Below are positions 24,692-45,768 of a DNA stretch of 64,000 bases, piece after piece. The notes beneath the pieces are model-generated. The model did no database searches, had not been told where the DNA came from, and saw only the letters and a list, made by a program, of their open reading frames with translations. How positions within the stretch are numbered: the stretch's first letter is position 1; each line of letters begins with the position of its first letter. Made by a program: the position numbers and the translations under genes. This DNA is from an uncultured Methanosarcinales archaeon (GTDB lineage Archaea; Nanobdellota; Nanobdellia; Woesearchaeales; UBA583), in the NCBI GenBank assembly GCA_964429995.1, contig CAYSDY010000002.1, positions 110,361 through 174,360 on the forward strand. Reading direction: 5' to 3'.

Positions 24692-24693
24692 AT

Positions 24694-25917: not shown

Positions 25918-25918
25918 A

Positions 25919-26410
25919 ATGACAATTCAAAAAAAACTTAAAACAATGAATAAGGAAGAGTTAATTTTAGTTATTAATGATTTATTAAAATATAATTCTG
26001 AAAATAGAAAGTATTTAAATTTAAGATTATCTGATGAAATTGATTTTAAAAAATTATCAGAAGAATCAAAAATAAAAATTAAAAATTGTTTTTCAGATTT
26101 TAAAGCAGATATTAGAAGAAGTAAAAAGATACTTAGCGATTATAATAAATTAAATCCTCCTATTGATTTGTATTTAGATTTATTCTTATTCTACTTAGAA
26201 TATGGAATTAAATATGGACAACATAGAGATATGTATTCAAGCTTCTATTATAGCTTTGAAATAATGTTTGAAAAGTTTCTTGATTTAATTAAAAATGATT
26301 CAATTTTAGTTTCAAAGTATAAATCAAAGTTAGAAAAGATTGTTGATAATTCTCAACCAGGTTATGGACATTACGATACTCTTTCAGAATTAATGGAGGT
26401 TATAAAATAA
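25919..26410 (+). CDS. Hypothetical small protein
   Basis: 163 aa, with 1-nt gaps to both neighbours. Confidence 0.4.
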   Translation: MTIQKKLKTMNKEELILVINDLLKYNSENRKYLNLRLSDEIDFKKLSEESKIKIKNCFSDFKADIRRSKKILSDYNKLNPPIDLYLDLFLFYLEYGIKYGQHRDMYSSFYYSFEIMFEKFLDLIKNDSILVSKYKSKLEKIVDNSQPGYGHYDTLSELMEVIK

Positions 26411-26411
26411 A

Positions 26412-29243
26412 ATGGGAGCAAATACAAAACAAGATGCAGTAATTAAAAGTACAGATGGAATTTATATTGTAGATGCAGGAGCAGGAACGGGTAAGACATA
26501 TTCAATTACACAGAGATATTTAGAAATATTAAACAAAGGAGTTAATCCTAAAGATATTTTTTTAGTTACATTTACCAGAAATGCATCAACTCATATGAAG
26601 GAAAAAGTAATTTCTAAAGCTGATCCAAAAATAGCAACAGAGATAATAGATGCTCCAATACAAAACTTTGATTCTTTTTGTTTTAAAATTGTTTCAAAAT
26701 ATGGTTTGAATGCACCAAAGATATTAGGAATTGAAGATAATCTTTCAGGATATAAATTAATATCTCAGTCAGTTATACAAAAAAGAATATTTAATAAATT
26801 CTTTAATCAATTCTTAGAAGATAATCAAGATAAATATCAAAAATTATTAGTTTCAATATCAAATCAATTAGAAATACATTCTTTAATTGAGACATTATTA
26901 TCTAAAGGGATTTATCCTACAAAAACAGGATGGTTTTTAGATGCTGAAGATAAACTTAAAGGAGATTATAAATTATTTGCAGAACATTTTAATAAAATAA
27001 ATGAACCTGGAATTGGTGCTAAAGGACCAACTCAATCAGATTTATTAAGTAAGATGAAAACTAGGATTTCATCTAAAAGCTTTTTAGATATACCTGAGAC
27101 TATAGAAACTGAAAAACAAGTAAATCCTAAGTTGATAGATGATATATTTTATGATGATAGGGGAGAAATTATTGAATTTATTCATCATGTATTTATTGAT
27201 TACATTGAATATATGATTAAAGAAAATTCTATGACATTTTCATTAATTGCTATGTTTGCATTTTTAATTTTGTATAATGAAGATGAAGTAAGAAATATTA
27301 ATTCATTCGATTATATTATGGTTGATGAATTTCAAGATACTAATGAAATGCAATTTATGTTAATTCTTCTTTTATTAAAGAAACCTAATCTTTGCGCTGT
27401 TGGTGATTGGAAACAAGGTATTTATGGATTTAGAAATGCTACAATAAGTAATATTAGAGAGTTCAATACTAAGATTGAAAGATATAAAAATCAGTTAAAC
27501 AAAGAAAAGATAAGAATTTCATTTGATGTTTCTCAAATAACACCTCTTGATTTTGATGTAAATTATAGAAGTTCTCAAAAAATTTTAACTTTTTCTGAAA
27601 GGAGTTTAATTACAAAAGCAAGTAAGAATGAAACTATTGATATAGAAGATATTCAAAAAGATATTGTTTCCTTGAAAAGTAATTTTGAATATGATGAATG
27701 TAGTGAGATTAAGTACTATGAAGCAATTGACAAAGAAACTGAAATTAATTATATATTAGAAAAGATTCAAAATTTAGTAGGCAAGAAGACAATAAAATAT
27801 TTTGATTCAGAGATAAAAGAGTACAAAGAAAGATTTATTGATTTTAATGACATTGTAATTCTTTCAAGAACTAGGACTTTTGGCTTAGAAGTTCAAAAAA
27901 AAGCTAACGAATATAATATTCCTGCAGTTTATGAAGGAGGAATTAAACTATTTGAAGAAGAACCTTCAATTTTGCTTCTTGCTTGGTTAAAACTTTTATT
28001 ATATAAAAATAAAAGAGAAGCATGGATACCAATTCTTGAAAAAGAAAGTTATTCATATGCTCAGATTAAATATATTCTAGATAATAAAGAGTATCCTAAA
28101 GAGATTCTTGAATTTAGAGAACATTTGTTGAAAAATAGAAAGATAATAAACTATATTATTGATGAAATATTGAAAAGATATAATTTTACAGGTCCAGTTT
28201 CAAATGCAATGCTCAATATTTTAGATCAAATATTCCATTCAACTTTGATGTCAATAAGTGATTTAATTGTGTTCATTGAAGAAAATATTGAAAATGGGGA
28301 AACATACAATATTGAAATGGAAGGCTCGACTAATTCAATTAAAATTCAAACAATACATGGTTCAAAAGGATTAGAATATCCTATTGTGTTTGTTGTTAAT
28401 TGTAATCTTTCGAATTTCCCAAGTACAATCTCGGATAGTAACTCTTTAACATTTAACGAGATAGTAGGAATAAGAAATAAGAAGTTTTATTCTACTGAAC
28501 ATGAGTTTGTATTTGATAATTGGAAAACTGAACTTGCAAACATGGGATTATTTTCAGATATGGATGAAGAAAGAAGATTATTGTATGTTGCAATAACTAG
28601 AGCAATGTATGATGTTTATTTTACAGCTCACAGACCCTCCGAATTCTTCAATGAACTTTCAGGAGAAGAAAAAGAAGTTATTGAAGAGACTAAGATTGAA
28701 AAATTAAATTTAGTTGAAAAGCAAGAATCATCGACACTAAAAATTAATACTGTTATTGAGGCTAAAAATAAAGTACTAGGTGTTCATGATTTAATGAATT
28801 TTAAAGAGGGACAAAAAGGAAGAGGTATGGAATTTGGAACGATTATACATAAGCTTGCATTTAGATATATTAAAGGATTAAAGATAAGTTCTATTGATAA
28901 TGAATTTAAGCAAGACTTTGAGAATATTAAATCTTTTGTTGATACTGAGTTGAAATATGGGAAGCTTATGCCTGAGATTGATTGTTCTTTACCTATTGAT
29001 GGAACTTTAATTAGAGGAATAATAGATTTAGTTGTAGAGTTTGATAATAGAATTGAGATAATTGATTGGAAAACTGATTTAGTAAAAGATAATATTGAAG
29101 AATATTCTAAGCAATTATCTATTTATTATTATGTATTGAAGGCTATTTATCCTGATAAAGAGATTGTTTGTAAAATCTTTTGGACTTGTAAGGCGCAAGT
29201 TGATGTAGTTAAAGTTGTTGAATTAGGGGTGGTGATAGAGTAA
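26412..29243 (+). CDS. UvrD/PcrA-like SF1 helicase with C-terminal PD-(D/E)xK nuclease domain (AddA/RecB-like)
   Basis: VDAGAGTGKTYS (motif I), VDEFQDTN (motif II), IHGSKGLEYPIVFVV and LLYVAITRA (V/VI). C-terminal GIIDLVVEFDNRIEIIDWKTD is the nuclease motif. Confidence 0.8.
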   Translation: MGANTKQDAVIKSTDGIYIVDAGAGTGKTYSITQRYLEILNKGVNPKDIFLVTFTRNASTHMKEKVISKADPKIATEIIDAPIQNFDSFCFKIVSKYGLNAPKILGIEDNLSGYKLISQSVIQKRIFNKFFNQFLEDNQDKYQKLLVSISNQLEIHSLIETLLSKGIYPTKTGWFLDAEDKLKGDYKLFAEHFNKINEPGIGAKGPTQSDLLSKMKTRISSKSFLDIPETIETEKQVNPKLIDDIFYDDRGEIIEFIHHVFIDYIEYMIKENSMTFSLIAMFAFLILYNEDEVRNINSFDYIMVDEFQDTNEMQFMLILLLLKKPNLCAVGDWKQGIYGFRNATISNIREFNTKIERYKNQLNKEKIRISFDVSQITPLDFDVNYRSSQKILTFSERSLITKASKNETIDIEDIQKDIVSLKSNFEYDECSEIKYYEAIDKETEINYILEKIQNLVGKKTIKYFDSEIKEYKERFIDFNDIVILSRTRTFGLEVQKKANEYNIPAVYEGGIKLFEEEPSILLLAWLKLLLYKNKREAWIPILEKESYSYAQIKYILDNKEYPKEILEFREHLLKNRKIINYIIDEILKRYNFTGPVSNAMLNILDQIFHSTLMSISDLIVFIEENIENGETYNIEMEGSTNSIKIQTIHGSKGLEYPIVFVVNCNLSNFPSTISDSNSLTFNEIVGIRNKKFYSTEHEFVFDNWKTELANMGLFSDMDEERRLLYVAITRAMYDVYFTAHRPSEFFNELSGEEKEVIEETKIEKLNLVEKQESSTLKINTVIEAKNKVLGVHDLMNFKEGQKGRGMEFGTIIHKLAFRYIKGLKISSIDNEFKQDFENIKSFVDTELKYGKLMPEIDCSLPIDGTLIRGIIDLVVEFDNRIEIIDWKTDLVKDNIEEYSKQLSIYYYVLKAIYPDKEIVCKIFWTCKAQVDVVKVVELGVVIE

Positions 29244-29244
29244 G

Positions 29245-30693
29245 ATGATTGACTATAATAAAATAGAAACTATATTACAAACTTCAAAAGCTTTTGAGTT
29301 AATCAGAGTAAAGAATTTGCCTGAAATTCTTTCATTTTTATATAAAGAATTTAAGGAAGATAGTAATAGTACTTTAAAGTATGAAGAAGCCATAACTAAA
29401 CTTTCTAATTATTTAGATATATTGGAAAGTGAAAATGAAAATGATTTTTTAATTAGTAATTTTGAAAAAGCAAGAAAAGTATTAGACAAATGGTGTAAAA
29501 AAGAATTTTTGGTAAGGACTGAAGATTCTAAAGGTAATTGGAATATTTCTTTAACTCCTGAAACTAATAAAGTTATCTTGTGGATTGAAGATTTAGAAGA
29601 AAAAGATTTTATAGGTACTGAATCAAGGTTTCAACTTATATTTAATCAACTAAAAGATATAATTGAAAAAAGTACTTTAGATCCTGTTGAAAGAATAAAA
29701 CAATTAGAAGAAAGAAAAACTGAAATAGAAATAGAAATTCAAAATGTAAAAAATGGAATAATAAATCCTGTTGAGAATTATTTAATTCAAGAGATGTATG
29801 AAAATGTATTAAAAAATGCTAGAAGTTTAGTTTCTGATTTTTCAGAAGTTGAAAAAAATTTTAAAGAAATTATAAGTAAAATATATGAAGACCAAATTAG
29901 TCAAAAATATTCTAAAGGTTCAATTGTTATTAATACTTTTAATTCATTGGAAGCATTAAAAGAAAAAGATCAAGGAAAAAGTTTCTATGGATTTTGGCAA
30001 ATTTTATTTAATCAAAATGGTTCATCTCAATTAGATAAGTTAATTGGAGAAGTTCATTTAATTTTAGATGACAAGAAAATAAAAAATAAAGATTTCTTTT
30101 TAGAAGATCTTAGATTTCAATTACATGAAGCAGGGAAGAAAGTAATTGCTACAAATATTCTTTTAGCCGAAAGATTAAATAGGTTAGTAAACAACGAAAA
30201 TTTAAAAGAAAGTAAAAAAATATTTGAGACAATTAATGAGATTAAAAAATTAATGATTCAAAATGTTAATAATTCAAATAATATAAATAATTTAATGTGT
30301 ATAGAATTAAATCCTGAATTTAATTTTCCATTTGAAAGAAATCTTTTAGAATTAAGTTTTAAATCAAATATTAAAGAAATTATTTTACCTGAAATTAAAA
30401 TTAATCTGGAAGATATAAGTGAATTATTTTCATATGTTCCTGTAAATGAAACTGAGTTAAAAAATAGAATATTGGAACAAATAAAGGATAATAAAGAAAT
30501 TTCATTAGGGGAATTAACAAAGAATATCCCTATAGAGAAAGGAGTTGAAGAAATTTTAAAATATTATAGTTTAGCTTTAAATGATTTACAAAAGTTTTCA
30601 AATATTGATAATATTAATAAGGAGATAATTACTTTTGATTATAATAAACAAATAGGGTTAGAGGTACCTAAAATTATATTTACTAAAAATTAA
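29245..30693 (+). CDS. jetA: Wadjet JetA-like (MksF-like kleisin-type) protein
   Basis: 482 aa. It is the first of four overlapping genes whose sizes and order (482/196/1131/384 aa) match JetA/B/C/D. It has a coiled-coil middle and no catalytic motifs, as expected. Confidence 0.5.
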   Translation: MIDYNKIETILQTSKAFELIRVKNLPEILSFLYKEFKEDSNSTLKYEEAITKLSNYLDILESENENDFLISNFEKARKVLDKWCKKEFLVRTEDSKGNWNISLTPETNKVILWIEDLEEKDFIGTESRFQLIFNQLKDIIEKSTLDPVERIKQLEERKTEIEIEIQNVKNGIINPVENYLIQEMYENVLKNARSLVSDFSEVEKNFKEIISKIYEDQISQKYSKGSIVINTFNSLEALKEKDQGKSFYGFWQILFNQNGSSQLDKLIGEVHLILDDKKIKNKDFFLEDLRFQLHEAGKKVIATNILLAERLNRLVNNENLKESKKIFETINEIKKLMIQNVNNSNNINNLMCIELNPEFNFPFERNLLELSFKSNIKEIILPEIKINLEDISELFSYVPVNETELKNRILEQIKDNKEISLGELTKNIPIEKGVEEILKYYSLALNDLQKFSNIDNINKEIITFDYNKQIGLEVPKIIFTKN

Positions 30694-30694
30694 A

Positions 30695-31285
30695 ATGGAA
30701 AATAATGATACTAATTATGATGAAAAATCTATATATTCTGAAACTCTAATAAAATTACTTAAAGGTATTTTGTATAATGATGATGTTAATGCCTGGGATA
30801 ATTTAAGAATTTTTCAAAAAGATATAAGAAATTATTTTTTAAAAATAAATCTTGAATTAATTATTGATGAAGATAAAGGTTTTGCTTTTTTAAAACAAAT
30901 TGAAAATGATGAAAATAAAAATAATTTGCCAAAATTAATTAATAAAACTTCTTTAGGCTATGATTTAACTTGTTTTTTAGTAATATTGAGAGAATGGTTA
31001 GAAGATTTTAAGAAAAATTCAGCAAATTTATCAACTTTATATATTTCTGAAGAAGATATAAAGGAAAGAATCGAGTATTTTTTTAAACATAATACTGATG
31101 GTTTGCAATTAATTAAAAGAATTAAACATTTAATAAAAGAAACAATAAAATTAGGATTTATAAAAGAAATTAATAATTCAATAGAATTAAAATATGAAGT
31201 AAAAAGAAGTCTAGAAGCTAAAGTCAATGTTGATTTTCTAGAAAATTTTAAGGAGGAATTAGAGAAGAATGGAACTGAAAATTAA
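30695..31285 (+). CDS. jetB: Wadjet JetB-like (MksE-like) protein
   Basis: 196-aa acidic protein. N-terminal LIKLLKGILYNDDVNAWDNL...EDKGFAFLKQ resembles the conserved JetB/DUF4194 block. 1-nt gap to jetA and overlap with jetC. Confidence 0.5.
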   Translation: MENNDTNYDEKSIYSETLIKLLKGILYNDDVNAWDNLRIFQKDIRNYFLKINLELIIDEDKGFAFLKQIENDENKNNLPKLINKTSLGYDLTCFLVILREWLEDFKKNSANLSTLYISEEDIKERIEYFFKHNTDGLQLIKRIKHLIKETIKLGFIKEINNSIELKYEVKRSLEAKVNVDFLENFKEELEKNGTEN

Positions 31286-34200
31286 AGAATATGATGATTC
31301 CATTAGTGGTTTCAGATTAAATTTTATTGAAGTATATAATTGGGGTTTATTTCATGGAAATGTTCAAAGAATTAATCCTAATAGTAAAAGTTCAATTTTA
31401 TTGGGAGAAAATGGAGCAGGTAAGACAACATTAGTAGATGCAATTCAAACTATATTAGTTCCAAACAAATTAAGAGCATATAATCAATCTTCAGGAGCAG
31501 AGAATAAAAAAGATAGAAATGAGATTACATATATTCAAGGAAAATATGGAGAAATTAAAAATAATGAAACTGATAATAGTATAACTGAACAGTTTCTAAG
31601 AACTGAAAAAGGTGAGATATATTCTGTACTTCTGGCTTCTTTCTCAAATTTAGATAAAAAAGAAATATATACTTTAATTCAAATATTATGGTTTGGAAAA
31701 AATGGAATAAAAAAATTATATATTGTTTCAAATAAAGAATTAACTATTGATAATGATATTAGACCTTTTAATAATGATGCTAAATGGAGAAGAGATTTTC
31801 AAAAAGAATATGAGAAAAATCTAGTTTTATTTGAATTAGATAACTCTGGAAAATATTTTCATTTAATTCAAAAAATATTTGGATTAAGATCTGAAAAAGC
31901 TTTGAGTTTATTTTCAAAAACTATAGGAATAAAAGTTTTAGGTAGTCTAGATGAATTTATTAAGAATGAAATGATTGAAGATTATAACACAGAAGAAGAA
32001 TTTAGAGAATTGCATAAACATTATTTATCTTTATTATCTATTCATAAATCTATTCAAAAAGCGAAAAAACAAATTCTATTGTTAAAACCAATATTTGAAG
32101 AAAATAATGAACTTGAAAAAATAAATACTGAATTAAATAAAGTTCTTTTAATTGAAGAAAATATTGAACTATATTTTCAAAAGATTAAACTGGCAAAATT
32201 AATTGAAAATTCTGAATTAATAAATAAAGAAATTGTTAAAATTAAAATAGAGGTTAATAATATTATAGAAAGAATTAATAAATTTAAATTAAAAGAAAAA
32301 GAATTAGAAACAATGATTAATTCAGATGAACAAGGCAAATTAATAATTAATATTGATTCTCGAATTGAGAGTTTAAAAATAGAACAAAAAAAAGTACATT
32401 TTAAACATCAATCTTATATAGAACTTTGTGATCTTGTTGGAATAAATATTAATAATCTAAATGAAGAAAAATTTATTATTAATAATAATAAAATAAAACA
32501 AGAAATTGTTTTAGTAAATTCAGAATATGAGAAGAAAAAAGAAGAATGGGCTGATAAAAGAAATGAAGTTGAAAATTTAAGTACAAATATTAAAGATATT
32601 AGTGAAGAATTAAGTTCATTAGAAAACAGAAAAAACAAAATTGATTATAATTTGATAAAAGTTAGACATAAAATAATAACAGAATTAGGATTAAAAGAAT
32701 TAGAAATACCATTTGTTGGAGAATTAATTAAAGTAAAAGATTCGGAAAAAGATTGGGAGAAAGCAATTGAAATTGCATTAAGAAGTTTTGCTTTAAAACT
32801 AATAGTTCCTGAGAAACATTATTCAAAAGTAAATAAATATATAAAAACAACATTTTTAAACGAAAAAATTTCATATTACAAAGTTAATGATAATTTTATA
32901 ACTAATATTGAAGAACATGATAAAACTAAGTTTTTAATAAATAAAGTTGAAATCAAGGATGATACGCAATATTTTAATTGGATAAAATATAATATTTCTA
33001 GATACTATAATTACATTTGTACTGAAAATTTAGAAGAATTTGAGAAAGAGGATAAGGCAATAACTAAAGAAGGATTATTAAGAGATTATAATAAACATCA
33101 AAAAGATGACCGTAAAAATTTATTTGATAAAAGTAAATTTATATTGGGATGGAATAATGAAGATTTACTTAAAATTAAAAAAAACGAATTAGAATTTATA
33201 CGGAACCAACAAAAATTATTGAAAAGTGAAGAAATTGATTTTAAGAATCAATTATTAGCATTGGAAAATAAAAAAGAAACATTAAACGATTTAATTAAAT
33301 ATGATAATTATGAAATAGTTGATTTTAATTCAATTCTTATTGAGATTAGTAATTTAGAAAAAAATAAATTAAAAGTACAAAAGAATAATTCGAAAATAGA
33401 TGATTTTCAAAATCAATTAGAAAAAACTAAAGAAAAAATTGAAATAAATGATAAAAATAGAATAGATAAATTAAGTAAACAAAAGAACTTTGAAGATAAT
33501 TTAAATTTAATAAATGAAAAAATTGAATCAATTAAAATAATAGTTGAAAATTCTAAGTTAAATTTTGATATAGAAAAACTAATTGAAGAATTTTTAGAGA
33601 TTAATATTCTCAATTGGAATTTAAATAATTTTGAATCAAATCAAAGATTTGAAGAAAAGAAAATACAGCATTTAAAAGAAAAATTAAGAGAAGAAATAGA
33701 TAATAAATCTAAAAAAATTTTAGAATTAATGTCTGAATATAGAAATCCTAAAGATCAAAAAATACATGAGGATTTTCCAGAATGGATTGGTGAAAATAGT
33801 TTTCTTTCGATTAAAGTTGATTATTTATATGAATATATTGATAAATATAAAAAAATTGAATGTGAAGAATTGCCTGATGCAGAAGAACAATTTGAGAGAA
33901 TATTTGAAGAATCTATAATCTTTAAAATGGCTGATTTTCAAGAAGAATTGGAAAAAAGAAGAAAAAAAATAATAGAGAGTATTAGAGAATTAAATTTATC
34001 ATTAGAAAAAATAGATTTTACTTCATTTCCACAAACTTATATTAAAATAAATGAAGAGACAACCAACAATGAGTATATAAAAAAATTTAGAGAAGAACTT
34101 AGAGATTGGAAACCTAATGCAGGAGGTTTAAGTAGAGGTTACAATAAAGATGCATATGAAGAAAGCTTTAATAAAATTAAAATGTTAATAAATAAATTAT

Positions 34201-34664
34201 CAACTAATGATAATTATAGAAAATTTGTTATGAATGTTAAAAATTGGTTTACATTTTCAGTAAATGAATATTGTAGAGATGATAATTATTTAAGAAGGGT
34301 ATATCAAAGTACTAGTGAACTTTCAGGAGGAGAGAAAGCTCAATTAACATATGCAATATTAGGAGCTTCATTATCATATCAATTTAACATTGAGAAAGGT
34401 ATTAAATCTCAAAATTCATTTCGTTTTGTAATAGTAGATGAAGCATTTAGTAAACTTGATAATATTAAATCTAAATATTTGATGGAATTAATTAAAAAAT
34501 TACATTTACAAGTTTTAATAGTTACTCCTAATGAAAAGATGCATGTCGCTCAAGATTATGTTCAAAATGTTCATTATATAAATAAAAATGATAATATTTC
34601 CACTATAATGAATATGCCATATATTGAATTTGATAAATTAATAAATAAAAATGAAAATCTCTGA
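31269..34664 (+). CDS. jetC: Wadjet JetC-like SMC-family ATPase (MksB-like)
   Basis: N-terminal LLGENGAGKTTL (Walker A). About 800 aa of K/E-rich coiled coil. C-terminal LSGGEKAQLTYAILGA (ABC signature) and FRFVIVDEAFSKLD (Walker B). Confidence 0.75.
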   Translation: MELKIKEYDDSISGFRLNFIEVYNWGLFHGNVQRINPNSKSSILLGENGAGKTTLVDAIQTILVPNKLRAYNQSSGAENKKDRNEITYIQGKYGEIKNNETDNSITEQFLRTEKGEIYSVLLASFSNLDKKEIYTLIQILWFGKNGIKKLYIVSNKELTIDNDIRPFNNDAKWRRDFQKEYEKNLVLFELDNSGKYFHLIQKIFGLRSEKALSLFSKTIGIKVLGSLDEFIKNEMIEDYNTEEEFRELHKHYLSLLSIHKSIQKAKKQILLLKPIFEENNELEKINTELNKVLLIEENIELYFQKIKLAKLIENSELINKEIVKIKIEVNNIIERINKFKLKEKELETMINSDEQGKLIINIDSRIESLKIEQKKVHFKHQSYIELCDLVGININNLNEEKFIINNNKIKQEIVLVNSEYEKKKEEWADKRNEVENLSTNIKDISEELSSLENRKNKIDYNLIKVRHKIITELGLKELEIPFVGELIKVKDSEKDWEKAIEIALRSFALKLIVPEKHYSKVNKYIKTTFLNEKISYYKVNDNFITNIEEHDKTKFLINKVEIKDDTQYFNWIKYNISRYYNYICTENLEEFEKEDKAITKEGLLRDYNKHQKDDRKNLFDKSKFILGWNNEDLLKIKKNELEFIRNQQKLLKSEEIDFKNQLLALENKKETLNDLIKYDNYEIVDFNSILIEISNLEKNKLKVQKNNSKIDDFQNQLEKTKEKIEINDKNRIDKLSKQKNFEDNLNLINEKIESIKIIVENSKLNFDIEKLIEEFLEINILNWNLNNFESNQRFEEKKIQHLKEKLREEIDNKSKKILELMSEYRNPKDQKIHEDFPEWIGENSFLSIKVDYLYEYIDKYKKIECEELPDAEEQFERIFEESIIFKMADFQEELEKRRKKIIESIRELNLSLEKIDFTSFPQTYIKINEETTNNEYIKKFREELRDWKPNAGGLSRGYNKDAYEESFNKIKMLINKLSTNDNYRKFVMNVKNWFTFSVNEYCRDDNYLRRVYQSTSELSGGEKAQLTYAILGASLSYQFNIEKGIKSQNSFRFVIVDEAFSKLDNIKSKYLMELIKKLHLQVLIVTPNEKMHVAQDYVQNVHYINKNDNISTIMNMPYIEFDKLINKNENL

Positions 34665-35805
34665 GAAAATAATTAATACTAGTAAGAATAAATATTTGGA
34701 CTTTTTAAAAAGTATTATATTAAAAGATGAGAATTTTTTCCCATTAAGATTAAGAATAAAATTGCCACATCCAAAAAATAATTATTTAGAATTTTATGAG
34801 ACAATGAAGGAAATAAATTCCAAATCAAAAGAATCAATAAAATATGGTTATTTAATTTCTTTTAATCCTGGAATAAAAACTAGAGATGCAGGGACTCAAG
34901 ATATTCCTAATTCAGTTTTTTTTGAATCTGAAAAAGATTATTTATCATTTTTAAATAAAGAACAGGAAGTTAATCAATTTAAAAAAGATTTTAAGTTAAT
35001 TTTAACAAAGTATCCTGAATTGAAATCATGGATTGAAAGATTTCCAATTAAAATAATTAATTCAGCAGGATTATGGCATGATATATTGAAGGTCTGTGAT
35101 TATTTTTATTTGAACCCTAAACCTAATTTATATATTAGGGAATTGCCAATACAAGTTCATACTAAATTTATTGAAAATAATGAAGCAATAATTAGAGAAT
35201 TGTTAGACATATTAATTAGTAATGAAATTAACTCTTTAGAATTTGATTTTAAAAAAAGATTTAACTTAAAGTATGATCAATTTTTAATCAGAGTTAAAGT
35301 TTTGGATAAGAACATACTTTTGAAAAATAATTTGAATAACTCTTTTTTAGATTTTAGTTTACCACTAGATTTATTTGAGAAATTAAATTTAAATGTTGAT
35401 AAAGTATTTATTGTTGAAAATAAGATGAATTTTTTAACTTTCCCAAATATTGAAAATTCAATAATCATATCAGGTTCAGGGAATGGAGTCAATATTTTAA
35501 AGAATTCTTCTTGGCTTAATGAAAAACAAATTTATTATTGGGGTGATATAGATTCTCATGGTTTTGCAATTCTTTCAAGTTTTAAAAAATATTTCTCAAA
35601 TATAAAATCATTATTTATGGATTTTAAAACATATGATACATTTAAAGAGTTTGAAGTAAAAGGAGAAAAAACAGTTCAAGAAACTTTTTCTAATTTAACT
35701 GATGAAGAATTAAAAGTATTTAATTATGTTCATAGTAATAATTTAAGATTAGAGCAAGAAAGAATTTCTCAAGAATATATTATTAATAATTTGAAAAATG
35801 AATAA
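34651..35805 (+). CDS. jetD: Wadjet JetD-like protein with C-terminal Toprim domain (MksG-like)
   Basis: 384 aa. VFIVENKMNF (Toprim Glu) and YYWGDIDSHGFAI (DxD) lie in the C-terminal half. Overlaps jetC by 14 nt. Confidence 0.6.
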   Translation: MKISEKIINTSKNKYLDFLKSIILKDENFFPLRLRIKLPHPKNNYLEFYETMKEINSKSKESIKYGYLISFNPGIKTRDAGTQDIPNSVFFESEKDYLSFLNKEQEVNQFKKDFKLILTKYPELKSWIERFPIKIINSAGLWHDILKVCDYFYLNPKPNLYIRELPIQVHTKFIENNEAIIRELLDILISNEINSLEFDFKKRFNLKYDQFLIRVKVLDKNILLKNNLNNSFLDFSLPLDLFEKLNLNVDKVFIVENKMNFLTFPNIENSIIISGSGNGVNILKNSSWLNEKQIYYWGDIDSHGFAILSSFKKYFSNIKSLFMDFKTYDTFKEFEVKGEKTVQETFSNLTDEELKVFNYVHSNNLRLEQERISQEYIINNLKNE

Positions 35806-36958
35806 ACAACAACTATACCTAAAAAAGATTGAAAATGATGTTAATGAGAAAATATATGATTTGTTAATTCAACATCTAAAAGATGTTCATAAAGTACTTC
35901 CTAGAACTGATGATAATAAAGATTATTTAAGAGAGTTAAATAAACATCTATTCAAAGCATTAGAAGATTTAAAACAAACAAATAGATTTAACTACTTACA
36001 AAACTATAGACACTCAATTCTTATTATAAATACTATTCTTAGCTATAAACCTGATGAGAAACATCTAAAAGAAGTTAAGCTTTCAATATTAAATAGATTT
36101 TCCTCAGATATTATTTACGATAAAAAAGAGAAGATTCCATTAAAGTCTCAAATGACTGAACTTAGAATTACTTATGATACTAGCTATTTAATCTATCTTT
36201 TAGAAAAAGTTTTCATACCAAAAGAGATGTGGGATAAGGCAATGTATTGTTTAATTGCAATAGAATTAGTAGAACCAGATCATAACGATATTGATAAATT
36301 TAAAGAAATAATCACAAAACATCTAAAAAAAGAAGAATTAAAATATAAAGAATTTGAAGAACCTAAAGACTATATTATTCTTTTAGATACAAATATTATT
36401 TTAAATAAAGTATTATATGATGTTGGAGAATATAAAATATCTCATAACAAATTAGAAGAGTATAACTCTTTGATGGAAAAATGGGGAAATAACAATAAGT
36501 TTGTAATAACTAACTCTATAAAAGAAGAGTTAGACAAACAAATTAAATTTTCAATTGATACAGTAAACGATGTTTGTTCTAAGTTTAAACATTTTAATAA
36601 AAATGAAATTATTACAACACTTGAAAAGAGGTTTAATAATTTAATAAAAAAATATGCAATTGCAATAGAAGATAAACAATATGATTTAACAAATATTGAA
36701 AAATTCTACTCAAATTACTTAGGAAACTTATATGAAATAACTTTAGATAAAATCGAAAACAAGAAGTTATCTAAAAAATTAAAAAAACTCTCAGATAGGG
36801 AAGGTTTGCTTCCAGAAATAGGAGATCTGAAACTTTTAGCAGATGCAATTGAACTTAAGAAATCTAATTCAAAGGTAGCAATACTTTCAAATGATAAAGA
36901 CTTGTATTTATTTAATGAACAATTAGAAAAAGAATTTGGAATAAGAATTTACAAATAG
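35798..36958 (+). CDS. PIN-domain nuclease with long N-terminal helical extension, translationally coupled to jetD
   Basis: C-terminal domain has YIILLDTNIIL, KEELD, LLADAIE and LSNDKDL, the four acidic positions of PIN domains. Its ATG overlaps the jetD stop by 8 nt. Confidence 0.55.
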   Translation: MNKQQLYLKKIENDVNEKIYDLLIQHLKDVHKVLPRTDDNKDYLRELNKHLFKALEDLKQTNRFNYLQNYRHSILIINTILSYKPDEKHLKEVKLSILNRFSSDIIYDKKEKIPLKSQMTELRITYDTSYLIYLLEKVFIPKEMWDKAMYCLIAIELVEPDHNDIDKFKEIITKHLKKEELKYKEFEEPKDYIILLDTNIILNKVLYDVGEYKISHNKLEEYNSLMEKWGNNNKFVITNSIKEELDKQIKFSIDTVNDVCSKFKHFNKNEIITTLEKRFNNLIKKYAIAIEDKQYDLTNIEKFYSNYLGNLYEITLDKIENKKLSKKLKKLSDREGLLPEIGDLKLLADAIELKKSNSKVAILSNDKDLYLFNEQLEKEFGIRIYK

Positions 36959-36989
36959 GATTCAAAACTCTAACAAATAACAACCTAAA

Positions 36990-37030
36990 GCACTTTTACC
37001 AATAATTGTGCATTCTAAAAATTTCTTTTT
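36990..37030. repeat. Copy 2 of ~40-nt imperfect direct repeat (see 5662..5701)
   Basis: gcacttttaccaataattgtgcattctaaaaatttctttttt here versus gcaaatttaccaattattgtgcatttaagtaatttcttttg there. Confidence 0.5.
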
Positions 37031-37282
37031 TAGTAAGTCTGGATTTATTCCCTTAGCAGAAACTCTAAAACTTTCAAATTTATCATTTAAGAGAAATTTT
37101 CCTCTCTTCTCAGATTCAAATTCCACATATCTTGTCGTTTTCATAATATTTCTAAAAATTTGGTTATTTTTAACACTTTGCAAAGACCATCAACCTAAAT
37201 TTGAGCCACTTATAGCCAAGATAATGAGAGAAATATTTCAGAACAAGTCTTAGTCTTAAAATGTCAAAAAAGTCTTCAAATA

Positions 37283-38203
37283 TCAATGTTTAATCACCTC
37301 TAACACTTTTTCATATTCTTTTACTGCAATCTCTTTTTTGTTTAAATAATGAGTCATTCCAACATTTTTTGAAGTTGACCTTCCAGATATGAAGTTTGCT
37401 ATTTCAATTGCAACTCCTGCTTTAACCATTAAAGTAAATGAATACTTTCTTAGATATTTTAAATGAACTATTTTCTTATTATCTTGAGTATGATCTACAA
37501 ATCTATTGAAGTATGTTTTATCAAATTTGCCAATATGTTTTTTTAATTCATTATATAATTCTAATGTGAAGAATAAATAATAAGATGATTTCTGACCTCT
37601 TAAATAGAAATTATTGTAAGTAACTATGCCGTTTTCATGTATTTCTATGTTTTTTTCATCAAAATTTTCAAAGAAATGTTTAACTTCTGTTGTCCTAGCT
37701 GTTGTTTCAATATAGAATCTATATAATAAATAATGTAATCGATCATACTTAGAGACTTCTTTTACAGAGTTTTTAATTTCCAAACATGTTGGAATATAAG
37801 TATCAATATGAACTTCATTGTGAATTTTAATTCTTCTTCGGATATTTTCAATTATATCTAAGTCTAATATATCAAACTCTTCTAAGTAATTCAGCCATAC
37901 TCTAATTGCAACTCCTCCTTGTCTTTTGTTAATTTTTTCAAGAGCAATAGCATTTTTAATCTCTTCAATAGTATTAACACCAATCTCTTCAAACAATTTA
38001 GTTAGACAATTAAAAACAGATACTGCGTAAGTTCTTGTGAACTTTTTTAAAGTATATACTTTATATTCATTTTTTGTCTTAAAGTATATACTTTTTAATT
38101 TTATAAAATTTTGATTTTTTGGCGTAAAATTTTCTAGATTTCGAGAAATTTGCTGTTGATTAGAAATTTGAGAGGAGGCGTATTTGCCCCCTAGAGACGC
38201 CAA
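37283..38203 (-). CDS. int: Tyrosine recombinase / integrase (second paralog); reading frame is open through the adjacent tRNA-Ser gene, start undefined
   Basis: C-terminal RKYSFTLMVKAG...GRSTSKNVGMTHYLN (H..R...Y) and IETTARTTEV (R). The ORF track's longest frame (37283..38326) begins at a TTG inside the tRNA duplicate and reads through the tRNA. There is no ATG/GTG/TTG downstream of the tRNA until about residue 98. Relative to int 10821, the protein lacks about 60 N-terminal residues. Confidence 0.65.
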   Translation of the reverse strand: MASLGGKYASSQISNQQQISRNLENFTPKNQNFIKLKSIYFKTKNEYKVYTLKKFTRTYAVSVFNCLTKLFEEIGVNTIEEIKNAIALEKINKRQGGVAIRVWLNYLEEFDILDLDIIENIRRRIKIHNEVHIDTYIPTCLEIKNSVKEVSKYDRLHYLLYRFYIETTARTTEVKHFFENFDEKNIEIHENGIVTYNNFYLRGQKSSYYLFFTLELYNELKKHIGKFDKTYFNRFVDHTQDNKKIVHLKYLRKYSFTLMVKAGVAIEIANFISGRSTSKNVGMTHYLNKKEIAVKEYEKVLEVIKH

Positions 38204-38279
38204 GACAGGGATTTGAACCCTGAATTCCGAAGGAACTACATTAGCAGTGTAGCGCAATACCGAGTTATGCGATCTTGGC
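38198..38279 (-). tRNA. tRNA-Ser (anticodon GCU), no encoded CCA
   Basis: Minus-strand sequence gccaaga..ctaca-ctGCTaa-tgtag, long variable arm ttccttcggaatt, T-arm cagggttcaaatccctg, acceptor tcttggc plus discriminator g. The 7-bp acceptor and 5-bp anticodon stems pair perfectly. Confidence 0.8.
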
Positions 38280-38308
38280 ATTAGGTCTCTTTTTTTAGTC
38301 GCCGCCGG

Positions 38309-38348
38309 ATTAGCAGTGCTGCGCAATACCGAGTTATGCGACCTTGGC
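38309..38348 (-). repeat. Tandem partial duplicate of tRNA-Ser 5-prime half (acceptor/D-arm/anticodon loop, ~40 nt, 3 mismatches)
   Basis: Reads gccaaggtcgcataactcggtattgcgcagcactgctaat on the minus strand, versus gccaagatcgcataactcggtattgcgctacactgctaat in the tRNA. It lies 29 nt upstream of the tRNA 5-prime end. It is a likely att remnant. Confidence 0.55.
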
Positions 38349-40299: not shown

Positions 40300-40403
40300 T
40301 TAGAGTATATGTTATTGAGAATTTTGAAAAACCCTAAAATTCTCAGAAGAGTGTTATCAAAAAACTCTTATAAGTCCTAATGGAACAAGTTCAATTCTAA
40401 ATT

Positions 40404-40540
40404 TATTCCTTTGAATACTCCACTGCTCTGTGCTTTAATATTCAAAGGAATGATCAAAAATTGCAATAAAAAAAATTGAGTGATAAATACCCCATCATTT
40501 ATTCATAGGAATAACTCAAATTTTGTAATTTTTGTTTTAT
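40404..40540 (+). repeat. ~135-nt structured intergenic element, copy A (12-bp perfect stem ttcctttgaata/tattcaaaggaa + conserved ~95-nt tail)
   Basis: Matches 45647..45768. Stem sequences are identical, loops differ (20 nt vs 11 nt). The tail tgatYaaaaattgcaRtaaaaaaaaWtgagtgataaatRccccatcatttat...gRataaYtcaaattttgtRatttttgttttat is more than 90% identical. Confidence 0.6.
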
Positions 40541-40645
40541 AGGTTTTTTACAACCCTCTATTAAAAATTAATTTTAAAAATATGTTATATTTTTACTGTT
40601 AAGTTTAAACATTTATTTAAAATATTTTTTTATACTTTCTTATCT

Positions 40646-43537
40646 ATGAGATATTACAAGACAGGTATTTGCGTTTTATTGTTTTTTTTTGTTTTTTGCA
40701 ATGTTGTTTTTGGTGTTGGCGTCTTTGAAAATGGACGATATGTTTATTATACTAATAATTCACAACCACAGATAAGTATTAATATTACTGCTGGCAATGA
40801 AAGGCTTTTTATTGATAAAGGAGTTTTTTCATCTGATAATTTTGAAAAAGTTTATATTATACCTTCAGAGGATAGATATTTACCTTTATTTGCAAGTGGT
40901 AGTTATAATTTTTTACTTGATTTTGGAATTTCAAACATGAATAATCCTAAATTTAAATTGTTTGTTTATGATATGTCTAACAATCAGGTTGTTCCTAAGG
41001 GAGATTCTGTTGATTTTTCTTTAGTTTATGATAATGTGTCTCCTTTTATGACTTATTTTTTGAATGATATCAAAAAGAGTTCTAAACTAATGTTTAAGTT
41101 TAATGAGAGAATTTCTGAGCTTAAGGTTTCTTTTGATGGTCTTGGAACAATAAGATATAACAATATAGAGTACAATAATGTTTTGCTCAATGATATAATT
41201 TCAATTGATGTATCGAGTCTTAATTTTAAGAAGGATTTGTATGATATAACAATAGAATATGTAGATCTTGCTGGGAATGTTGTTGTTGAAACAAAAACAG
41301 TTTATGTTGGTCTTGAAGATCTTAAGGTTGAACTTCTTACAGTTAATGAGGATTCTTCTTTAAAGTATAATTATGATTCAAAATACCCATCTTTTTTTAA
41401 CAAAACAATATATTCTTCTTCTTCTGATTTTTTAATTAAAATAAAGACCAATAAAAATGCAAACTGTTTTTTTAGTTCTTCTTCTTATCAATTTAAAGAA
41501 TTTTATGCTCTTAATGATAAAAAATTAATGGAAAGCGATTCTGAAAATTTGACACATAGTGTAAGTGTTGGAAAGTTGGATGAGAAAATATGGATAGCTT
41601 GTCAGAATACTTATTATGAGAGTGAAATTGTTTATCTTAGTGCGGTTATGGGACTTGGAAATACTTTAATAAATATTGAAAAGTATGATCCATTAACTTT
41701 ATCTATTATTGATTTTGAACCAACAGGATTAGTTACAAATAATCCATTTTCTGTTTTGGCAAATACTGATAATCGTGCTATTTGTAATTATAGAATAGAT
41801 GATGCTGAACTTTTAATGATGGATACTTTAAATTTTACATCTTTTAAAAAAGAGAATGTTCAAACTACTGTTGGTACTCATGAACTGTATTTTGAATGTT
41901 TTGATGTTTTGGGCAGAAAGGCTGTAAAGAATACAAATATTCAGGTTGATCCTAATAGAGGAGTAAGTATTGTTAGTTATTCTCCTAAATATGTTGCAAA
42001 GACTTCTTCAGATATAGAGCTTACATTAAGTGAATCTAATAATGATATAAAATGCCGTTATAGTAAGACACAAAAAAGTAAGAGTAGTTTTTTAACATTG
42101 CCTTTGATATCTAATGGAGTGGGTAATAAGAGAAGTTTTTTACTTAGTGGCCTTGTTTCTGGAAATAATACAGTTTATATATATTGTAGCAAAAATGATG
42201 AGATTAGCGAGGATGTGATATCAATTATATATGATGATAAAGGGATGATGATTGATAATCTTAAATTTATTAATGGAAAGTATAAAAGTGATTATCTTGG
42301 TAGTTCTTTAGAACTTGAATTAGATTTTGATTTATCATCTCTTGTTCCTGTTTCTAAATATACTTTAACTGTTGTTTACAAGGATGATGATAATTATAGT
42401 AAAACTTATTCTGGTAGCAAACCATTATATCTAAAAAGAGATCTTAATGATTCTTTAAAGGTTGTTCTTGTTGCTGATAATGGTTTAACTACTGTTACAA
42501 AAGAGAAGATGATAAAGTTTGATATGGATCCTCCGGTTGTTGAGATAATTAATGTGCTTCAGGGAAAAAAGATTACATGTACAGATCCATTAAGTGGTTG
42601 TGCGTTGATATATTATGGATTTTCAAAAACGGATTTTGATTGTTTGCCAAATAAAATATATGCTAATTCCTCAGATGTGATCAATGTTGCTGGTCAGGTT
42701 TACATGTGTGCTCAGGCTTTTGATTATGTAGGATTATCTTCTAAAGTAACAGTTCTTGTTGGTGATTATAAGCCAAAAGAGGAAGAAAAGAATACTACAG
42801 TTGTTGATAATAAAAAGGATGATAAAAAAACAGATACTGATGATAAAAAGGTTACAGAACCTGAAAATCCATTTAAGAATATAGATGAAGATGATAATAC
42901 ATCTGATGAAAATAATACTGGAATGATAATAGGTGCTGTTATTTTATTGTTTGCAACTGTTGGTGGAGGAGGTTATTATGCATATAAAAAAGGATATCTA
43001 AACAAGGAGCTTGAAAAATTAGGAATAAAAACACATATGCAGAATTCTGGCAATGATTCTTTAATGCAGAATAATTCATCATCAGCAGGAAAAAATAATG
43101 GAATGATTTATGATTCATCTTCTATGCCTTATAGTAACAGGAAAGTTTCATCTTATGATTCTGGTGCTGAATATGATAAGCATATAAACAAAATAAATAG
43201 TTTTATTGATTCAAAGATTAGTGAGACATCTAATGTATTTGCTGAATTTGATGAAAAGAAAAAAAAGAAGGATGATGATAAGGATTCTGATTTTGATCAA
43301 AAAACTCTTATATCAAAAAAGAAATCTAAATCAAATATTATTGAAGAAGAGGATTTTGATGAATTTTACAAAGCAAGCAAGGAAATAGAAAAAAACATAC
43401 AAATGGATGACATAAAAGATCAAGCTACATCATTTGAGGAATATTATAAAAACAAAAAAAAAGACAAATCAGAATTAAAAGATAAGGATATTAAAAATAA
43501 GGATTCTAATAAAAAGGATGATGAAAAGAGTAAGTAA
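40646..43537 (+). CDS. Large cell-surface protein (signal peptide, Ig/beta-sandwich-like repeats, C-terminal TM anchor and K/D/E-rich cytoplasmic tail); S-layer/adhesin candidate
   Basis: N-terminal ICVLLFFFVFCNVVFG signal. C-terminal GMIIGAVILLFATVGGGGYYAYKKG TM followed by a lysine/aspartate-rich tail. Confidence 0.6.
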   Translation: MRYYKTGICVLLFFFVFCNVVFGVGVFENGRYVYYTNNSQPQISINITAGNERLFIDKGVFSSDNFEKVYIIPSEDRYLPLFASGSYNFLLDFGISNMNNPKFKLFVYDMSNNQVVPKGDSVDFSLVYDNVSPFMTYFLNDIKKSSKLMFKFNERISELKVSFDGLGTIRYNNIEYNNVLLNDIISIDVSSLNFKKDLYDITIEYVDLAGNVVVETKTVYVGLEDLKVELLTVNEDSSLKYNYDSKYPSFFNKTIYSSSSDFLIKIKTNKNANCFFSSSSYQFKEFYALNDKKLMESDSENLTHSVSVGKLDEKIWIACQNTYYESEIVYLSAVMGLGNTLINIEKYDPLTLSIIDFEPTGLVTNNPFSVLANTDNRAICNYRIDDAELLMMDTLNFTSFKKENVQTTVGTHELYFECFDVLGRKAVKNTNIQVDPNRGVSIVSYSPKYVAKTSSDIELTLSESNNDIKCRYSKTQKSKSSFLTLPLISNGVGNKRSFLLSGLVSGNNTVYIYCSKNDEISEDVISIIYDDKGMMIDNLKFINGKYKSDYLGSSLELELDFDLSSLVPVSKYTLTVVYKDDDNYSKTYSGSKPLYLKRDLNDSLKVVLVADNGLTTVTKEKMIKFDMDPPVVEIINVLQGKKITCTDPLSGCALIYYGFSKTDFDCLPNKIYANSSDVINVAGQVYMCAQAFDYVGLSSKVTVLVGDYKPKEEEKNTTVVDNKKDDKKTDTDDKKVTEPENPFKNIDEDDNTSDENNTGMIIGAVILLFATVGGGGYYAYKKGYLNKELEKLGIKTHMQNSGNDSLMQNNSSSAGKNNGMIYDSSSMPYSNRKVSSYDSGAEYDKHINKINSFIDSKISETSNVFAEFDEKKKKKDDDKDSDFDQKTLISKKKSKSNIIEEEDFDEFYKASKEIEKNIQMDDIKDQATSFEEYYKNKKKDKSELKDKDIKNKDSNKKDDEKSK

Positions 43538-43582
43538 GGTTTTATTTATCTAAGTTTTCTTTTAAAAGGAAATTCTTTTTAA

Positions 43583-44284
43583 ATGAAACATAGTTTTATA
43601 TTTTTAATGAATAAAAAGAAAGGTTTTTTGGATTACCTTAAAAGGTTCTGGAAATATTTATGGCATGATGATTCTTTGGGTTCTTATGTCTTAAATTTTA
43701 TTTTTGCATTTATTTTTATAAAATATCTGTTCTTTCCTACAATTGGTTTTTTACTTAACAATGATTATCCTATGGTTGCAATTGTTTCAGGTAGTATGGA
43801 ACATAAAATAGTTAATCATAATGTGTGTGATAAAAATGTTGTTGATACGCAAAATAAAAACCTTAATTTTGATGAATGGTGGAGTTTGTGTGGTACATAT
43901 TATGAAAAGATTAACATAACAAAAGCTGACTTTAAAGATTTTGATTATTCAGGTGGGCTTAATATAGGAGATATGATGGTTTTGTATGGAAAAGATCCTA
44001 AAAACATAGAAGTTGGAGAAATACTTGTATTTATTCCACAAGATAGGAATTTTTTTGTGCAAAAAGGTCCAGTTATACACAGAGTGGTTGATAAATGGGA
44101 AAATGAGAATGATGGTAAGTTTTATTTTGCAACTAAAGGGGATCATAATTCTGAAATATTTAAAGATTTTGAAAATAATATATCATCTGATAATGTGATT
44201 GCTGTTGGAGTTGTAAGAATTCCTTATATGGGATATGTAAAGATTATGTTTACAAAATTGGTATCTTATGTGACTGGTGGTTAG
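43583..44284 (+). CDS. Signal peptidase I (S26 family, archaeal Sec11-type)
   Basis: VAIVSGSMEH (box B Ser), GDMMVLYG (box C), IHRVV and TKGDHN (box D/E). Confidence 0.65.
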   Translation: MKHSFIFLMNKKKGFLDYLKRFWKYLWHDDSLGSYVLNFIFAFIFIKYLFFPTIGFLLNNDYPMVAIVSGSMEHKIVNHNVCDKNVVDTQNKNLNFDEWWSLCGTYYEKINITKADFKDFDYSGGLNIGDMMVLYGKDPKNIEVGEILVFIPQDRNFFVQKGPVIHRVVDKWENENDGKFYFATKGDHNSEIFKDFENNISSDNVIAVGVVRIPYMGYVKIMFTKLVSYVTGG

Positions 44285-44288
44285 GCAA

Positions 44289-45623
44289 ATGATTGAATCA
44301 AAACTTAGAAGTGTTGTTTTAGGAAGGATTAAAACGGATGAGTCTGAACATGCTTTTATTACATCTTGTGTTGAATCTGTTATTAAAAATCTTACAACTT
44401 GTGCTGAAAAATTAAATATTGACTGTAATTTTTTTGTTGGTGGTAGTTTTGGAAAGAATACTTATCTTAAGAATAATTCAGATGTTGATGTCTTTGCAAG
44501 GTTTTCTTTATCATATGATGATGATAAACTTAATGTTTATCTTGAAAAAATTTTAGAATTGGCTGGATATGATTATAAAAAACTTAAAGGATCAAGAGAT
44601 TATTTTGCTTTTTCTTTAAAGAATGGTAAAATTAGTCTTGATTTTGAGATAGTTCCTAATAGGTTTATTTTGTCTGCGGATAAGGCATTAAATACTACTG
44701 ATGTTTCTCCTTTTCATGTTGAGTTCATAAAAAAGATAGCTAAAAAAAATCCTTCTGTTTGCGATGAGATAAGACTTGCAAAACAGTTTTTTAAATCAAA
44801 AAAGTTATATGGTGCTGAGAGTTATATTAAAGGGTTTTCAGGTCATGTTATAGATATTATGATAAGTTATTATGGTAGTCTTGAAAACTTGCTAAATGAT
44901 GCTAAAACATGGGGAGAAGAAAAATTGATCGACATTAACAATGAATATGGATGTATTGATAAGGCAAAAGATTTTATGGGTAAATGTGGTAAATCATCAA
45001 GACTTATAGTTGTTGATCCTGTCTTAAAAGAGCGTAATGCAGCAAAATCGTTAAGTGATGATAATTATGCAAGATTCATTTTGATTGCAAATTTTATTTT
45101 GGAATTAAAAGAATCAGATTTTATAATAAATGATGTAGAAATCTTAGACTTATTTAAAAGTGCAAAAAAATTTGCAGAATCAAATGGTATGTTTTTTCTT
45201 TCGTATATTGTATCAGTTGATATGAAAGGAAATAGTTGTGATATTGTTGGGTCAAAACTTTTAAAATTACATGGAAAACTTAAAAAGTATTATGAATCGT
45301 ATGATTTTTTTTCATTAAAGGATACTTTTTCAGTAGAACTTAAAAGATCTAATCAGGCTTTAATGGTATTTTTTTTTGAATATTCTAAATTGTCTGACCT
45401 AAAAAAGGTTATAGGTCCTTATGTTCATATGAAAGATAGTGTTGCAAATTTTATAAAAGATAAAAAATTTTATTTTGTTGAAGATTTTAGAGTTTACTCG
45501 TATCAGAAGAGAGATAAGTGCAAACTTAAGGATATTGCTTTTGTTGATGCTTTAAAAATGGAAAAACTTTTAGGTAAGGATATGAGTTTTGTTTCAAAAG
45601 TTAGATTTTATTCTAATCTTTAA
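44289..45623 (+). CDS. cca: CCA-adding enzyme (archaeal class I tRNA nucleotidyltransferase)
   Basis: FFVGGSFGKNTYLKNNSDVDVFARF (G[GS]x9-13Dx[DE] Pol-beta NTase motif) in a ~445-aa protein. I prefer the ATG at 44289; the ORF track's 44277 start is GTG. Confidence 0.6.
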   Translation: MIESKLRSVVLGRIKTDESEHAFITSCVESVIKNLTTCAEKLNIDCNFFVGGSFGKNTYLKNNSDVDVFARFSLSYDDDKLNVYLEKILELAGYDYKKLKGSRDYFAFSLKNGKISLDFEIVPNRFILSADKALNTTDVSPFHVEFIKKIAKKNPSVCDEIRLAKQFFKSKKLYGAESYIKGFSGHVIDIMISYYGSLENLLNDAKTWGEEKLIDINNEYGCIDKAKDFMGKCGKSSRLIVVDPVLKERNAAKSLSDDNYARFILIANFILELKESDFIINDVEILDLFKSAKKFAESNGMFFLSYIVSVDMKGNSCDIVGSKLLKLHGKLKKYYESYDFFSLKDTFSVELKRSNQALMVFFFEYSKLSDLKKVIGPYVHMKDSVANFIKDKKFYFVEDFRVYSYQKRDKCKLKDIAFVDALKMEKLLGKDMSFVSKVRFYSNL

Positions 45624-45646
45624 AGTTATATTTTAGGTTTATGTTT

Positions 45647-45768
45647 TATTCCTTTGAATAAATGAATACTTCAAAGGAATGATTAAAAATTGCAGTAAAA
45701 AAAAATGAGTGATAAATGCCCCATCATTTATGGCTGGGATAATTCAAATTTTGTGATTTTTGTTTTAT
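45647..45768 (+). repeat. Structured intergenic element, copy B; overlaps the last 13 codons of smc
   Basis: See 40404..40540. It lies between the convergent cca and smc genes. Confidence 0.6.

Follow-up and report, generated by a model that had tools for sequence, protein, structure and literature searches.

The miniature inverted-repeat transposable elements of prokaryotes (MITEs) are non-autonomous elements derived from insertion sequences (ISs), and include SM1-SM4 of Sulfolobus and the Correia elements of Neisseria. In the IS5, IS1031 and IS427 groups the terminal inverted repeats (TIRs) begin with GA or GAG, and insertion generates A/T-rich duplications of 3-4 bp. Other small palindromic repeats, for instance the BOX elements (boxA-B-C) of pneumococci and the bacterial interspersed mosaic elements (BIMEs) and repetitive extragenic palindromes (REPs) of enterobacteria, are intergenic, consist of separable modules in varied combinations, and often lie between convergent genes. 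Within the archaea, a census that includes DPANN genomes contains a woesearchaeal genome with a high density of MITEs (PMC11602168). Here we analyze a family of repeats in a 64-kb window (the whole stretch of DNA under study; contig CAYSDY010000002.1, positions 110,361 to 174,360), in which two direct copies, A and B, flank a block of three genes, with copy B at the 3' end of smc. An earlier note on this DNA, made from the letters alone, offered three explanations for the two copies: a MITE-like element, a family of small non-coding RNAs, or recombination sites bounding a cassette. The first is borne out by the analyses below and the other two are not. Our reading, to which we assign a probability of approximately 0.75, is that the window copies belong to a small, non-coding, palindrome-rich, MITE-like family, carried by a DPANN archaeon that is AT-rich and of the Woesearchaeota/Nanoarchaeota type.

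Copies, boundaries and modules of the repeat family

Region reading and alignment place the two direct copies where they had been reported, with copy A at 40402-40540 (139 nt, plus strand) and copy B at 45645-45768 (124 nt, plus strand). The copies are approximately 88% identical overall (88.6% over 105 nt by blastn); identity in the tail, which had been put above 90%, is 85-88% (blastn and global alignment of the tail). The unit recognized in the earlier note is hereafter called R, a second, short form S, and the long form S::R. Exactly two copies of R are present in the window: three probes of 24-25 nt have two matches each, compared with 0.00-0.02 expected from shuffled sequences, a number well above anything that chance would give. 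With nhmmer, profiles of the two modules, S and R, detected no diverged copies of either in the window.

A search for further copies, as the earlier note had proposed, extends the family beyond these two, to a total of eight copies at eight loci: A and B in the window, one at L020, three in L008, and one each in L009 and L011. Three of the copies beyond the window (in L008, L009 and L011) are full composites in unrelated gene contexts, on contigs of the same metagenome study. An exact 21-mer scan of metagenome contigs recovered two real copies (L008 and L009); the third match, L010, has a GC content of 0.51 and was rejected as chance. The S::R copy in L011 was reached via a protein that matched the translated spurious open reading frame (ORF) of the repeat. 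The two other copies in L008 are short: they retain 85-90 nt from the left end of the long form and ~20 nt from its right end, with R wholly missing (blastn). The copy at L020 (10140-10232), on the same contig and ~3.4 kb beyond the left end of the window, is a diverged and truncated S::R with the left arm of S and the first 8 nt of R; a UvrD/PD-(D/E)XK helicase gene takes its final ~20 codons and its stop from this copy. Every copy is intergenic or at the 3' end of a gene. Exact-pattern scans of viral contigs with four R and S probes gave no matches. An exact-pattern scan of the GTDB species representatives likewise gave none, so the species, or at least the repeat, is not represented among them.

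Copy A is the inner module R nested in a 242-nt composite, S::R, at 40317-40558 (plus strand). The extent given for copy A in the earlier note is too short for the element, as similarity within the family runs 85 nt further to the left and 18 nt further to the right. The composite is 91-94% identical to L008 10626-10890 and L009 8823-9090, and has a full-length match in L011 (~2196-2440). Its left TIR, GAGAATTTTGAAAAACCCT (40317-40335, plus strand), doubles as the 5' arm of a terminal hairpin of 10 bp (40316-40325 / 40336-40345), and its right TIR, which belongs to S and was found by both motif search and repeat finder, reads GAGGGTTGTAAAAAACC on the minus strand (40542-40558). The left arm of S (40317-40401, plus strand) is the part found without R in the two short L008 copies, and it is also present in the truncated L020 copy. 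S itself is ~110 nt long with imperfect TIRs of ~19-26 nt, GAGAATTTTGAAAAACCCC ... GGGGTTTTTCGTAACCCTC; the arms identified by the repeat finder in a short copy are 26 nt long and 77% complementary, and those in the window composite are 27 nt long and 70% complementary. A third, internal TIR-like motif, GAGTGTTATCAAAAAAC (40349-40365, plus strand; motif search), is a possible extra transposase-binding site.

The composite is bounded by direct TATT flanks (40313-40316 at the left, 40559-40562 at the right) that represent its target-site duplication (TSD). Flanking 4-mers of intact copies are equal on both sides: four copies have TATT/TATT, and one (L008 5197-5304) has TAAA/TAAA. The concerted change to TAAA on both sides is what a TSD predicts, while a fixed element terminus would not give it. 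In the L011 copy the flank duplication is disturbed by an adjoining IS. The elements occur in forms of ~110, 124-139 and 242 nt, below the limit of ~500 bp that is usual for MITEs, and their longest ORFs (20-29 amino acids) show no conservation. R has no TIRs when taken alone; S and S::R do. Given the TIRs, the TSD, the short length and the absence of any conserved ORF, the family fits the usual definition of a MITE.

Insertion of the composite is also apparent from the spacer in which it lies. The window spacer between taw1 and the gene for a 963-aa protein is 346 nt, compared with 117-136 nt for the upstream spacers of relatives, and is thus accounted for by a normal spacer of ~100 nt to which the 242-nt composite with its duplication was added. 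Neither S nor R is present at the corresponding loci of the relatives (L006, L012, L014/L015 and L016). Copy A had been described as the leader or promoter region of the 963-aa surface-protein gene, and its position upstream of that gene is correct; a promoter or leader role lacks support, with ~105 nt between the end of copy A and the start codon, including ~85 nt of non-repeat DNA that contains an A/T-rich, TATA-like sequence.

Independent assemblies of this organism break within the repeat (L002 and L005 start at window positions 40427 and 40535, respectively), as is expected of multi-copy DNA. Further shared break points are at window 48248 (ends of L001 and L005) and 50138 (ends of L003 and L004), inside smc and the downstream glycosyltransferase gene. 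Two other loci are of interest for their gene content. At L020, the helicase gene and its neighbor have 83-86% DNA identity to window 23487-29224, which places the repeat at the edge of a duplicated, AddAB-like segment of ~5.7 kb. L011 encodes an AAA_21 ATPase and RloB pair (300-1959), an OLD/abortive-infection-like defense pair, beside its S::R copy. The same locus (~2441-2557) and L009 (1-~981) carry a DDE_Tnp_1 IS of ~1 kb with terminal repeats GGCTCCGTTCGGAGTT, which are unrelated to the ends of S; in L011 the end of this IS abuts the left end of the S::R copy, with only TTA between them.

When set against described systems, the family works like a prokaryotic MITE in the properties compared, and is an ordinary genomic parasite, nested and modular. 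It shares with prokaryotic MITEs a length of 110-240 nt, the lack of an ORF, imperfect TIRs, a short A/T TSD and many copies of ~90% identity, as well as intergenic or gene-3'-end sites, strong predicted folding, and the capacity to donate stop codons or terminator-like T-tracts. It differs from typical MITEs in that no partner IS was found (in ~250 kb), R lacks TIRs, the modules combine as S, S::R and R, and it was seen in one uncultured lineage only. The modularity, palindromes, intergenic sites and frequent convergent neighbors recall BOX elements and BIMEs/REPs; however, there is no sequence relation, those repeats are bacterial, REPs are moved by REP-associated tyrosine (RAYT, Y1) transposases, and S has TIRs and a TSD. 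The GAG ends and 4-bp, A/T-only duplication of S recall those of the IS5 family. R resembles the palindrome-associated transposable elements (PATEs) derived from IS200/IS605 in its lack of TIRs, its 5' hairpin and the TTTA at its left border and right end, and these shared TTTA borders are reminiscent of target-specific insertion without duplication. The likeness is a resemblance only, since R has no subterminal 3' hairpin, no TnpA/TnpB gene was seen, and R is known from two insertion contexts.

Several observations weigh against the MITE-like reading. No autonomous IS with S-type TIRs is present in the window or the fetched loci, although at ~250 kb this is a weak negative, and the sole transposase seen (DDE_Tnp_1, in L009) belongs to an element whose ends are unlike the S TIRs. 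In tetranucleotide usage an unrelated Nitrosopumilus contig correlates with the window as well as L008, L009 and L011 do, so this measure does not prove that these three loci belong to the window's genome. The nearest relatives, with ~50% protein identity, are too distant for an empty-site comparison, while contigs of the same species are 100% identical here. Finally, only one solo R is known, so the independent mobility of R, a module without TIRs, rests on two contexts.

In the sequence of events that we consider most plausible, S, whose insertion yields the 4-bp A/T duplication, would be moved by a DDE transposase acting in trans. R is a second module, built of two adjacent palindromes, one copy of which became nested into S; the composite then spread, and one S::R landed in the spacer between taw1 and the 963-aa-protein gene to give copy A. 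Copy B is a lone R at the extreme 3' end of smc, where the native tail was probably exchanged for codons of R; it also puts oligo-T tracts on both strands between cca and smc, with a possible effect on termination.

Module R, its folding and the tail of smc

Copy B (45645-45768) is a solo R: it has neither arm of S, and the genes on its two sides, cca and smc, are convergent. The reported overlap with smc is correct: the stop codon and last 13 codons (NKTKITKFELSQP*) are encoded at 45728-45768 on the minus strand, that is, by the antisense strand of R. The antisense frame (KTKITKFEL...) is open in nested R copies as well. We considered whether copy B might be a composite with eroded S arms and rejected this, as the 85 nt at its left are conserved coding sequence for the C-terminus of the CCA enzyme (Pfam CAA_C extends to within 11 residues of the end). 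In the SMC proteins of the nearest relatives, 4-10 residues that are acidic or Pro-rich follow the DY[IVM]D motif, compared with 17 residues in the window SMC, of which the last 13 are basic and R-encoded. This longer, unlike tail leads us to read copy B as an R that probably arrived at the end of smc, where 13 codons and a stop of its own took the place of the native tail. Past the new smc stop, the minus strand contains hairpin 2 followed by a T9 tract, and the plus-strand end of R has T5/T4 tracts. Oligo-T tracts act in archaeal transcription termination, and R may thus serve as a predicted two-way terminator between cca and smc.

The opposite direction of transfer is an unlikely but coherent alternative, under which R is native to the cca/smc spacer, where it provides the smc tail and a bidirectional terminator, and was captured once by S via template switching or illegitimate recombination at TTTAT microhomology, with copy B as the source. 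All R copies other than copy B are at an identical position within S. R lacks TIRs, and TTTA/TTTAT is found at both of its borders in both contexts; specifically, the borders have TTTA(T) at the left and TTTTAT at the end, a short direct repeat (TTTA/TTTAT). In addition, the hairpin and T8-T9 tract directly after the smc stop resemble a natural terminator. Against capture stands the R-encoded tail of smc, which is 6-11 residues longer than the tails of all close relatives and of different character. Small repeats nested in one another are common in prokaryotes and, to our knowledge, capture of host DNA by prokaryotic MITEs is rare, both of which favor arrival of a mobile R at smc over its capture from there.

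The fold of R bears on a further alternative, in which R is a structured small RNA gene of ~125-140 nt, transcribed from the plus strand with a TATA-like promoter and termination at the 3' T-run, while the MITE serves only as its carrier. R opens with hairpin 1 and continues into a long imperfect palindrome; in copy A it ends T-rich. Hairpin 1 of copy A (40405-40451, plus strand) has perfect 13-bp arms (40405-40417 / 40439-40451) and a 21-nt loop. Hairpin 1 of copy B (45646-45682, plus strand) has a loop of 11 nt and 10 perfect base pairs (45649-45658 / 45670-45679), or 13 if G-U and flanking pairs are counted. A perfect 12-bp stem in each copy, as the earlier note had it, is thus found (and exceeded) in copy A and not in copy B, where 12 bp are reached with a 1-nt bulge; of the loop lengths of 20 and 11 nt that it gave, the second agrees with ours and the first is one short. 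The palindrome is layered into an outer stem of 11-12 bp, a 10-bp inner stem and hairpin 2, and in copy A the 12-bp outer stem is at 40455-40466 / 40523-40534 and hairpin 2 at ~40482-40503. A third, inverted hairpin-1 arm, TTCATAGGAATAA (40500-40517, plus strand), can pair with the 5' arm in place of hairpin 1 and is degenerate in copy B.

Some of these features are those expected of an RNA. TATA-like boxes occur at 40367-40374 (CTTATAAG, inside S) and at 45618-45625 (CTTTAAAG, before copy B), and R starts ~25-30 nt past an A/T-rich, TATA-like sequence in both copies. The plus strand folds better than shuffled sequences (z scores of -4.1 and -3.0), the copy B fold reaches -28.8 kcal/mol on the plus strand versus -19.9 on the minus strand, and in the 11-bp outer stem the four pairs that vary all keep their pairing on the plus strand, as G-U or G-C. 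Nevertheless, TATA-like strings are frequent at 26% GC, and palindromes fold well on either strand. No compensatory changes were found among the 43 predicted pairs, with a shuffle control equal to the observed value, though five close copies give this test low power. In the rest of the structure pair-breaking A-C changes are approximately as common as G-U changes; the asymmetry between the two classes, examined as a sign of a plus-strand RNA, amounts to ~5 versus 4 single events overall and is not significant. The argument that a stem kept while its loop differs indicates selection on structure is weak: single changes that break pairs are about as frequent as those that keep them, palindromic arms are what such elements consist of, and the stem is conserved to no greater degree than palindromy accounts for.

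Searches for a known or conserved RNA gave the same picture. Rfam had no match at the gathering threshold in the whole window, and for both copies the matches at E values up to 10 are noise-level miRNA and snoRNA hits, so the Rfam search proposed in the earlier note yields no meaningful family for either copy. A covariance model of R run against relatives and extended loci recovered the known copies only, with no homolog in relatives. An archaeal C/D-box sRNA was also considered and rejected, because the candidate C, D', C' and D boxes, examined by eye on both strands, are imperfect and are lost in copy B, and the Rfam C/D matches have E >3. The evidence for R shows palindromy without a sign of selection at the RNA level, and we regard an RNA gene merely carried by the MITE as very improbable.

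A more speculative extension of the MITE-like reading, which we hold to be doubtful, is that R could be a TIR-less structured module that is moved or copied by a mechanism other than that of its carrier MITE and is expressed as a ~130-nt plus-strand RNA from a TATA-like box supplied by S. R would then be a MITE-borne small RNA, or a portable two-way terminator reshaping the 3' termini of essential genes (smc, and the UvrD-like helicase gene at L020) in a DPANN archaeon with a reduced genome.

The enclosed three-gene block and neighboring genes

The block between the copies (40646-45623) encodes a secreted protein of ~960 aa, an archaeal signal peptidase I and a CCA-adding enzyme. The same trio is kept in L006 (5855-10859), L012 (4372-9323), L014/L015 (L014, 4297-9323) and L016, with a signal peptidase of ~235 aa, and is conserved across Woesearchaeota/Nanoarchaeota-type metagenome-assembled genomes (MAGs) at ~50% protein identity (CCA enzyme, ~47-51%). 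The comparison of synteny suggested in the earlier note therefore gives no indication of a variable block. In L012, smc is on the opposite strand, two small genes downstream of the trio. Nor is the block GC-richer than its surroundings, as had been supposed, having a GC content of 0.268 versus 0.263 and 0.264 in the flanks. The trio is an ancestral gene cluster, as its distribution in relatives indicates, and the repeats came to its two borders later.

That the copies are att-like recombination sites around a mobile 5-kb cassette is suggested by their direct orientation exactly at both ends of the block and by an integrase gene 2 kb to the left, but is already contradicted, and has next to no probability, given that the block is kept without repeats in L006, L012, L014 and L016 (with smc two small genes away in L012, an ancestral neighborhood), has the GC content of its flanks and contains the essential cca, that the integrase has a tRNA-Ser site of its own and a separate low-GC island directly beside it, and that the repeat is also found at unrelated loci.

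The host DNA is AT-rich (26% GC). Neighboring genes encode a cyclophilin, a Taw1/Tyw1 radical-SAM enzyme, the 963-aa protein (no family match), signal peptidase I (TIGR02228, above cut-off), a class-I CCA enzyme and SMC. The closest CCA enzymes (~47-51% identical) and SMCs (~60-75%) are from MAGs labelled Woesearchaeota or Nanoarchaeota, and these low identities indicate a DPANN archaeon without close sequenced relatives. Identical contigs recur in several metagenomes of one study.

The CCA enzyme (44289-45623) scores 219 bits versus a cut-off of 281 bits for NCBIfam cca_archaeal and has weak SMODS/CBASS-cyclase matches, which probably reflect no more than the nucleotidyltransferase fold that this divergent DPANN enzyme has in common with those families. 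To the left of the repeats, a low-GC stretch (0.19-0.23; ~30000-38280) ends at an archaeal-type integrase gene (37283-38203, minus strand) that overlaps tRNA-Ser(GCT) (38196-38280). JetC- and JetD-like (Wadjet) genes are located to the left of the integrase (window 33583-35805, via L001), and the whole stretch looks like a tRNA-integrated defense island. A 21-nt piece of the tRNA-Ser is directly repeated 69 nt apart (38252-38272 and 38321-38341) and may be an att remnant of an integration event.

Consequences for annotation and genome biology

For annotation, masking the repeats as mobile DNA is advisable; calling them promoters, cassette borders or RNA genes is not. They also account for the interruptions at these points in assemblies of this organism. 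The biological interest is modest and lies in the activity of a modular family of nested MITEs in a DPANN archaeon with a small genome, where it changes the final codons of housekeeping genes (smc and the UvrD-like helicase gene) and places T-tracts between convergent genes. Should R prove to be transcribed, or to move independently, it would offer a compact archaeal example of a mobile RNA or terminator module.

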